Part shown: positions 21,492 to 21,648 of the stretch, in pieces
Layout of the letters: each line of letters begins with the position of its first letter
Position numbering within the stretch: the stretch's first letter is position 1
Origin: Victivallales bacterium
GTDB lineage: Bacteria; Verrucomicrobiota; Lentisphaeria; Victivallales; UBA1829
Length of the DNA stretch: 64,000 nucleotides
Direction: 5' to 3'
Assembly: GCA_045639325.1 (NCBI GenBank)
Contig: JAZUCU010000002.1
Coordinates: 21,287 to 85,286, forward strand
Made by a program: the position numbers and the translations under genes
The notes under the pieces: generated by a model
Told to the model about the DNA's origin: nothing
Database searches by the model: none
Seen by the model: the letters and a program-made list of their open reading frames with translations, nothing else

Positions 21492-21648
21492 GAGAATTCA
21501 TTTCATCGCATAATATCGGTTATGCCATATCCGGCACCGGTTCCCGGTGACCGGCTATTTCATAGCAAAAAAAAGCACCGCGAACCGGTGCCAATTCCTG
21601 GGGGGGATAAGACAAAACAAGACCCATTATGCGACGTAATGAATTCTC
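21492..21648 (-). other. Folded attP-like structure at the prophage right junction: two inverted XerC arms around a structured loop
   Basis: gagaattcatttcatcgcataat (21492-514) is the reverse complement of attatgcgacgtaatgaattctc (21626-48) at 20/23 positions. Inner stem ggcaccggttc/gaaccggtgcc. Confidence 0.8.

Follow-up and report, generated by a model that had tools for sequence, protein, structure and literature searches.

The 64,000-nt stretch of DNA analysed here (the window; GenBank assembly GCA_045639325.1, contig JAZUCU010000002.1, positions 21,287 to 85,286, with coordinates below counted from its first letter) belongs to the metagenome-assembled genome (MAG) of a gut bacterium of the Lentisphaeria, G000. 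It carries an intact inovirus prophage of 8,910 bp (12717-21626), whose genes lie on the minus strand. We consider it probable from sequence comparison that this prophage, which has no recombinase of its own, was inserted in the chromosomal dif site by CTXphi-type hairpin capture with the Xer recombinases of the host. The observations behind this reading are the junction sequences, the folds and covariation of the phage attachment site (attP), the empty sites and the circular forms.

A prophage without recombinase at dif

The prophage had a G+C content of 30-37%, compared with 44-52% in the host background. It contained a complete inovirus gene set on the minus strand, with genes for a helix-turn-helix (HTH) protein and a DUF2726 protein on the plus strand (Table 1). 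Pfam and PHROG profile matches to the open reading frames (ORFs) of the window revealed no integrase or recombinase domain in any phage ORF. G000 encodes XerD (329.9 bits, above cut-off) and a XerC-like paralogue (318.6 bits).

A degenerate dif pattern had one match in the window, at the right junction (attR), against 0.01 expected by chance. The exact 11-mer ACGTCGCATAA of the left junction (attL) recurred once, at 12727-12717. The 22-nt core of dif (≤2 mismatches) was found in 34 of 41 related genomes, almost always as a single copy; by this measure, the insertion site of the prophage is the single, order-wide conserved chromosomal dif. GC skew at 4-kb resolution did not mark the terminus.

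Junction architecture and register of attP

The prophage is bracketed by a direct repeat (D1, 12716-12868 and 21626-21778) of 153 nt and 93% identity, here termed element E. It ends exactly at the boundary between XerC arm and spacer, and its final 11 nt are the XerC arm of the left junction. A first-pass annotation of the window had proposed that the junctions match XerC-only capture of a folded single-stranded DNA (ssDNA) attP of the CTXphi type. All junction elements were read on the minus strand as listed there, including the dif regenerated at 12727-12700. The left XerC arm and its flank had been taken as plain host sequence; this had to be revised, because the flank is a copy of E that is also phage-like and is not naive host DNA.

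The two inverted arms (21492-21514 and 21626-21648) were complementary at 21 of 23 positions in the repeat search (inverted repeat I5). Flank and XerC arm alone formed 20 Watson-Crick pairs and one G-T pair, with one mismatch, in line with the 20 of 23 pairs counted previously.

The register of the top strand was set by comparison with further phage lineages, namely the sister phage (Rep 84% identical), L089 (82%), L088 (61%), L080 and L081 (44%), and L086 (33%). In five related phages the top XerD arm begins TT[A/t]TGTCTTAT, 3 nt further in than in the first-pass annotation, which had placed a 6-nt spacer TGGGTC before the arm TTGTTTTGTCT. The arm of the relatives starts with TTATG (TTtTG in G000; arm TTtTGTCTTAT), 9-12 nt past the XerC arm. 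The top spacer of G000 is 9 nt long and the loop 76 nt instead of ~85 nt; the bottom 6-nt spacer CCGATA stood as first read. Across six lineages the top spacers measured 9, 9, 11, 9, 12 and 9 nt, and the bottom spacer was 6 nt in all.

After XerC exchange, dif TAT would face phage bottom-strand ATA with three Watson-Crick pairs, and phage TG would face the dif bottom strand (3'-AT) with one Watson-Crick and one G-T pair, exactly as calculated in the first-pass annotation. On the XerD side, ligation would begin at a C-A mismatch and there is no homology to dif. A natural variant followed the same rules. The dif spacer of genome G002 is GATATA; L088, whose element E matches the G002 copy at 95% identity, has the bottom spacer TGGATC, in which ATC complements GAT, and a top spacer GGC.. 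that gives a G-C and then a G-T pair.

Folding and covariation of attP

When attP was reconstituted from the right and left ends and folded as ssDNA, it formed one long forked hairpin of 157 nt with a free energy of -43.7 kcal/mol. Two hundred shuffles of the same sequence folded at -17.6 ± 2.7 kcal/mol (z = -9.65 for attP). The hairpin that the first-pass annotation had expected in the single strand was thus obtained. The same hairpin was present in all seven lineages, and in 7 of 7 the coding (plus) strand was more stable than its complement.

Covariation was scored in six lineages at fixed offsets around the XerC arms; L080 was excluded for its bulged arm. Paired cells amounted to 84.8%, and 11 of the 34 stem pairs had changed on both sides (18 cells). 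Only 0-1 of 500 column shuffles reached these values, and structures slid by 1-3 columns paired at 30-46%. Eight of the compensated pairs fall in the 10-12 bp beyond the XerC arm, where top and bottom flanks read GAGAATTCATT and AATGAATTCTC in G000, ATGATTTGTT and AACAAATCAT in the sister phage, CAATTCATT and AATGAATTG in L089, and GGCATTTGATT and AATCAAATGCC in L088. The stems of the four close lineages contained 10 G-T and no A-C pairs. Selection on the coding strand, and not on the complement or on duplex DNA, would leave exactly that pattern.

Empty sites, circular forms and integrated relatives

No record matched the neighbouring HAD protein exactly; relatives of it at 85% and 58% identity yielded phage-free loci, two in a closer relative of G000 (L091 and L092; HAD 85% identical) and two in a more distant species (L060 and L067). 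In these loci the HAD gene and the same flank are followed by ACGTCGCATAA, which runs directly into TATATA TTATGTTAAGT and then into the ABC-side flank; L091 matched the joined window flanks base for base. The first-pass annotation had made its reading depend on continuity of the dif C arm in empty relatives, and all four loci showed it.

Integrated copies of the sister phage (L048-L050 and L057) occupied the same context, holA-HAD on one side and ABC-ATPase-TPR-mutL on the other. Free forms were recovered as well. The ends of L051-L053, contigs of ~8.8 kb, overlap by 141, 121 and 55 nt, and L056 is permuted, with the secretin gene passing through the right end into the left end. In all four contigs, E and attP sit between the secretin and DUF2726 genes. 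The circle joint reads ...GATGATTTGTT [G/A]CGTCGCATAA TGGGTC TTGTTATGTCT ... ATATGGCATAA CCGATA TTATGCGATGA AACAAATCAT, which is the attP predicted from attL and attR. The empty locus L060 and the circular contig L051 came from one sample.

A second species of the genus, represented by a MAG from sheep colon (G003), had a scrambled remnant to the left of its prophage (L043, G003:C136 1-1320). The remnant contains a secretin fragment, an intact DUF2726 gene, hairpin H1 (Table 1) and E; DUF2726 survives and the phage genes are gone. This scrambled left copy shows that integrations accumulate one after another on the XerC side, in the manner of arrays of integrative mobile elements exploiting Xer (IMEX). 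The remainder of the G003 prophage was not found in the G003 MAG. A search of genome contigs with the attL pattern returned G003 and one chance match only.

Proposed mechanism of integration

In the proposed mechanism, the flank and ACGTCGCATAA of the packaged coding (+) strand would fold onto the inverted TTATGCGATGA and its flank ~135 nt downstream. The resulting forked hairpin of ~157 nt would present a XerC arm, an asymmetric central region (9 nt top, 6 nt bottom) and a XerD arm. Host XerC would cut the top strands of hairpin and dif at the arm/spacer boundary and swap them, and the swapped strands would be held by the pairing of dif TAT with phage ATA and of phage TG with dif. With no complementarity on the XerD side, a second exchange would not follow, and replication would turn the pseudo-Holliday junction into the prophage. 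The expected products are attL, in which the XerC arm is followed by TGGGTCTTG TTTTGTCTTAT ..., and a regenerated dif at attR.

The in silico tests of the mechanism put forward in the first-pass annotation all agreed with it; XerC-only catalysis, use of an ssDNA substrate and resolution by replication are deductions from the sequences. With its 9-bp spacer, attL is expected to serve Xer poorly as a substrate once it is double-stranded, and reversal of the integration by Xer is therefore improbable. The earlier claim that integration is effectively irreversible has to be qualified, however, since the flanking repeat of 131-153 nt allows homologous excision.

Several points weigh against this mechanism. 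Catalysis, ssDNA substrate and resolution by replication are read from sequence, and the host is an uncultured MAG. The phage-host homology of 131-153 nt would by itself allow RecA-mediated integration. Empty sites and circular contigs come from related species and not from that of the window, and tandem prophages can give rise to circular contigs as well. The covariation segments were cut by anchoring on the XerC arms, with flank columns at fixed offsets; the lineages are related and not independent, and the shuffle statistics overstate their independence. The XerD arm of the G000 hairpin is imperfect, TTTTGTCTTAT pairing with ATATGGCATAA through eight Watson-Crick pairs and one G-T pair, with two mismatches. 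Finally, the species of G002 is the presumptive host of L088 by similarity of E and not by observation.

Element E, the repeat common to phage and host

E measures 131-153 nt and was present in empty host sites and in free phage. It adjoins dif in the phage-free L091, L092, L060, L067 and G002 and in both G003 junction contigs, and E-like blocks were recognisable beside dif in other genera. In the sister system, 129 nt starting from (A/T)TTGGTAAAAAACG are common to, and identical in, empty site, attL and attR. The E of the sister circular contigs L051 and L052 showed four differences (the boundary base at -129 and single-nucleotide polymorphisms at -99, -97 and -11); that of L056 differed only at -129. 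E contains the invariant blocks CGGGTT, GGGGTC and TACGGGG.

Phage and chromosomal E were 93-98% identical within a host species and 67-69% identical between G000 and the sister species. This near-identity within species indicates concerted evolution of the E copies, for which phage and chromosome must have exchanged sequence repeatedly. In L065, attL (at 1396) carries a mosaic E that is host-type at -99 and -97 and phage-type at -11. The mosaic may reflect a crossover inside E or an assembly chimera, L065 being a single 2.4-kb metagenome contig across a repeat.

The window contains one prophage and one candidate nick site between its 153-nt flanking repeats, and circular or tandem forms occur in metagenomes. 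Homologous recombination between the bracketing E copies is predicted to excise the prophage precisely; it would release a complete circular genome and restore an intact E-dif, leaving a mosaic E. As a tentative reading, E possibly has a function for the phage instead of being a scar. Long direct repeats would give a CTX-type phage that Xer cannot excise a precise single-copy exit, either RecA-mediated or by a cer/psi-like XerC deletion, and the phage would rewrite the dif-proximal flank of its host. E would then offer a concrete answer to how such a prophage leaves without tandem copies or helper elements, and rewriting by phages would explain the conservation of the dif flank across genera of the bacterial family. 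Alternatively, E could be a cer/psi-like accessory sequence or a mere scar.

In the plasmid Xer sites cer and psi, accessory sequences promote XerC-first, FtsK-independent deletion. The accessory DNA, ~150-180 bp long, adjoins the core site on its XerC side, is bound by architectural proteins and is directly repeated on the substrate; E is similar in position and length and has conserved blocks without a conserved fold. However, no binding proteins are known for E and the attL core has a 9-bp spacer; the resemblance is positional only.

Two further roles for E were rejected. As a structured RNA or ssDNA it showed no covariation and folded at -6.6 kcal/mol. As a rolling-circle start/stop repeat, which would yield unit circles from one prophage, its left boundary is unlike the candidate nick site CTCTAATAGCGGG, and that site is single-copy inside the prophage.

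Alternative explanations

The alternative that survives best is RecA-dependent, Campbell-type integration and excision of the double-stranded replicative form through phage E and chromosomal E, with Xer having acted once in the evolutionary past. We regard this as unlikely. The length of E, its 93-98% identity between phage and host and its concerted evolution within each species fit such a route, as do a phage contig with host-type E (L056) and the L065 mosaic; the latter, however, comes from the possibly chimeric contig noted above. RecA does not account for the fact that in every species the homology stops precisely where XerC cleaves. Nor would it need an inverted dif-like site, a flank that covaries with the species-specific 3' end of E, or a spacer that complements dif. 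A RecA route through E may occur alongside the Xer route.

Even less likely is a VGJphi-type integration, in which a double-stranded DNA (dsDNA) attP1 (ACGTCGCATAA TGGGTCTTG TTTTGTCTTAT) recombined with dif by one XerC strand exchange without involvement of the inverted copy (which might be a terminator or origin structure). Exchange at attP1 in double-stranded or folded form gives identical junctions, and the spacer opens with the same base as that of dif (T; G in L088). However, dif identity past the cleavage point is limited to 1 bp, and the duplex spacer of attP1 is variable (9-12 bp), whereas the attP of VGJphi is a single 29-bp site (PMC4246890). The only site with a proper 6-nt spacer is dsDNA attP2 (TCATCGCATAA TATCGG TTATGCCATAT), in which the three XerC-side bases are identical to dif. 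It would suit a VGJphi-type exchange well, but its use would have inserted the phage the opposite way round; its orientation is wrong for the junctions in every integrated copy seen (G000, G003, L048-50, L057, L062 and L065, from three or more host species), and this well-spaced site is in no case the one used. The compensatory changes, the G-T asymmetry and the energy advantage of the plus strand in 7 of 7 lineages point instead to a folded single strand, and the phage does not classify with the VGJphi type.

A TLCphi-type integration, XerD-first and FtsK-independent at a dsDNA attP with a degenerate XerD arm and with a phage-encoded activator, is highly improbable: the top XerD arm is indeed degenerate (TTTTGTCTTAT, 6 of 11 matches to dif in G000), but profile matches to the window ORFs revealed no phage protein of the DUF3653/XafT kind, the XerD side of the spacer has no dif identity, the crossover point is at the XerC boundary, and the phage falls outside this type.

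Comparison with known systems

CTXphi-type hairpin capture, the reading that we prefer, resembles the known CTXphi system in most respects. Both concern a filamentous phage without integrase, located at dif, with dif regenerated at one end (PMC4246890, PMC3442271, PMC6744903). In CTXphi, attP1 has a central region of 12 bp and attP2 one of 5-7 bp, the two sites lie 90 bp apart, and attP(+) measures ~150 nt (PMC4246890). Here, two inverted dif-like sites likewise form a forked hairpin of ~150 nt in the (+) strand; the long and short central regions are 9-12 and 6 nt, compared with 12 and 5-7, and the separation is 76 nt, compared with 90. According to a review of the Vibrio work, specificity is set by the bases beside the XerC site, and missing homology on the XerD side blocks a second exchange (PMC4246890). 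In the phage of the window, 2-3 bases beside the XerC arm set compatibility and none do so on the XerD side. As in CTXphi, the junction letters come from one site and compatibility from the other. Features of the CTXphi type found here are no recombinase of its own alongside host XerC/XerD, insertion in dif, a hairpin of inverted sites (in silico), long and short spacers that make neither site a good duplex substrate in the orientation used, and pairing on the XerC side.

The differences concern host, repeat and stem. The listed members of the CTX type (CTXphi, RS1, Ypfphi and CUS-1phi; PMC4246890) are from Vibrio, Yersinia and E. coli, all Gammaproteobacteria, whereas the host phylum here is Lentisphaerota. 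Because the phage carries 131-153 nt of host dif flank, even one prophage copy lies between long direct repeats. Such a repeat is absent from CTXphi, which integrates irreversibly and depends for phage production on tandem copies with rolling-circle replication, or on helper elements (PMC4246890, PMC6744903). The outer stem of the present hairpin also extends 10-12 bp past the XerC arm. By tblastn of Rep against 50,697 phage records, no sequence kinship with the CTXphi group was seen, the common ground being the Pfam superfamilies Rep_trans and Zot only. The element thus appears to work like CTXphi, is not a sequence relative of it by these comparisons, and adds the E repeat.

Other systems share single features. 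VGJphi is also a filamentous phage at dif, with XerC-only exchange, identity beside the XerC arm only and a regenerated dif; however, it has one 29-bp dsDNA attP and is excised by Xer, and the VGJ-like attP2 here is wrongly oriented. TLCphi and XafT-dependent elements likewise exploit Xer at dif and have a degenerate attP XerD arm, but TLCphi is XerD-first, with a DUF3653 activator and full central-region homology, none of which were found here. In integron attC recombination, a folded single strand reacts with a double-stranded site through one strand exchange by a tyrosine recombinase, and the product is resolved by replication (PMC4792948); there, however, a dedicated integrase acts on the bottom strand, extrahelical bases set polarity, and neither Xer nor dif is involved.

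Inoviruses have been seen in cultured Lentisphaerae and were reported as extrachromosomal (PMC11361711); a literature search turned up no inovirus of this phylum that is integrated at dif or is of the hairpin type. To date, XerC capture of a folded single strand is established only in Gammaproteobacteria, for CTXphi and a few of its relatives. That an unrelated inovirus from a gut bacterium of the Planctomycetes-Verrucomicrobia-Chlamydiae (PVC) group has this architecture suggests that the strategy is old or easy to evolve. The natural covariation, with stem changes and a matching dif spacer variant, supports the base-pairing rules derived from Vibrio mutagenesis. In uncultured phyla, such elements can be located through conservation of the dif flank together with inverted dif-like pairs.

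Gene content and other features of the prophage

Table 1. Features of the prophage, its junctions and its host flanks (window coordinates)
Feature	Position	Strand	Basis or remark
ABC-transporter ATPase gene, right host flank	11298..12362	-	
attR, regenerated full dif: ACGTCGCATAA TATATA TTATGTTAAGT	12727-12700	-	
Element E, phage-borne right-end copy, ends with XerC arm	12717..12868	-	last 11-12 nt before arm are the outer hairpin stem
Hairpin H1, candidate packaging signal or minus-strand origin	12892..12960	-	inverted repeat I6; between secretin gene and E
pIV-like secretin	12974..14242	-	PF00263 at 3.7e-9; phrog_1012
pI/Zot-like assembly ATPase	14151..15422	-	PF05707; phrog_197 at 6e-18
pVI/Ace-like minor coat protein	15427..15852	-	phrog_306 at 2e-8
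pIII-like adsorption protein, 688 aa	15856..17922	-	position and size; matches to coiled-coil only
Candidate major coat protein, 80 aa, hydrophobic	18103..18345	-	ORF list; no family matches
Rep_trans rolling-circle initiator	18840..19916	-	PF02486 at 5.5e-10
Candidate ssDNA-binding protein, 128 aa	19933..20319	-	position upstream of rep; no family matches
HTH protein, candidate repressor, divergently transcribed	20450..20689	+	weak PF12728 match; same position in relatives
DUF2726 cargo gene	20693..21190	+	PF10881 at 2.8e-19; kept in G003 prophage remnant
Candidate plus-strand origin (Rep_trans nick site)	21275..21310	-	stem GCCCGC/GCGGGC, loop CTCTAATA; GCCCGC gcgCTCTAATA GCGGGC
Bottom strand of attP hairpin (attP2 in reverse)	21492..21530	-	
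XerD' arm ATATGGCATAA	21530-21520	-	bottom strand
Spacer CCGATA	21519-21514	-	bottom strand
XerC' arm TTATGCGATGA	21513-21503	-	bottom strand
Flank AATGAATTCTC	21502-21492	-	bottom strand
Structured loop, 76 nt	21531..21606	-	folds; internal 11-bp stem GGCACCGGTTC/GAACCGGTGCC
Phage part of attL	21607..21626	-	register from relatives
Top spacer TGGGTCTTG, 9 nt	21626-21618	-	
Top XerD arm TTTTGTCTTAT	21617-21607	-	
TGGGTC, then TTGTTTTGTCT	21626-21621, 21620-21610	-	register of the first-pass annotation
XerC arm ACGTCGCATAA	21637-21627	-	
Flank GAGAATTCATT	21648-21638	-	
Element E, chromosomal left copy, ends with ACGTCGCATAA (21637-21627)	21627..21778	-	
HAD-type hydrolase gene, left host flank	21839..22420	-	holA upstream

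All 37 Rep homologues lay in small inovirus-like contigs. A tblastn search of 50,697 phage records with Rep gave no match at E ≤ 1e-3, the viral contig set contained no relatives by Zot protein or attL pattern, and a loop pattern matched nothing among the metagenome contigs. No Rfam family was detected within 12000-22500.

The stem of H1 is maintained by differing sequences in G003 and in the sister phage. The stem-loop at 21275-21310 occurs once in the window and is conserved in L089 and L088; we take it to resemble the pT181 nick site. A plus-strand origin in the attP loop (21533-21592) was considered and rejected, because among phages whose Rep proteins are 61-84% identical it is the motif at 21275-21310 that is conserved and not the loop sequence.

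Further dif-like arrangements

Distant Rep relatives showed another arrangement. L083 (3191-3320 and 6355-6385) and L084 (6143-6270) have direct-repeat sites made up of ACGTCGCATAA, 9 nt and TTATGTAAAGT, without an inverted partner, and L083 joins two replicons (Rep_1 and Rep_trans). Judging from these sites, attP architecture may vary within this clade.

On the XerD side of dif, ~35 nt (window 12665-12699, minus strand; equivalents in L013-L042) were also conserved across genera, with the pattern cg.atata.g...gggg......t.ta. The dif site is therefore part of a larger conserved block.

In each of two genomes from another genus of the family, G020 and G012, full dif-like 28-mers (GTCGCATAA TATACA TTATGT..) formed about five to ten inverted pairs, with the two copies ~70 nt apart; examples are G020:C38:24017-24145, G020:C49:21814-21941 and G012:C49:34471-34597 (L093-L095). 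The right-hand copy overlaps the ATG of genes whose products start with MRR.NFTLIELLVVIAIIAILA, a prepilin-type N-terminus. These pairs look like a family of invertible switches with dif-mimicking repeats, possibly driven by Xer.

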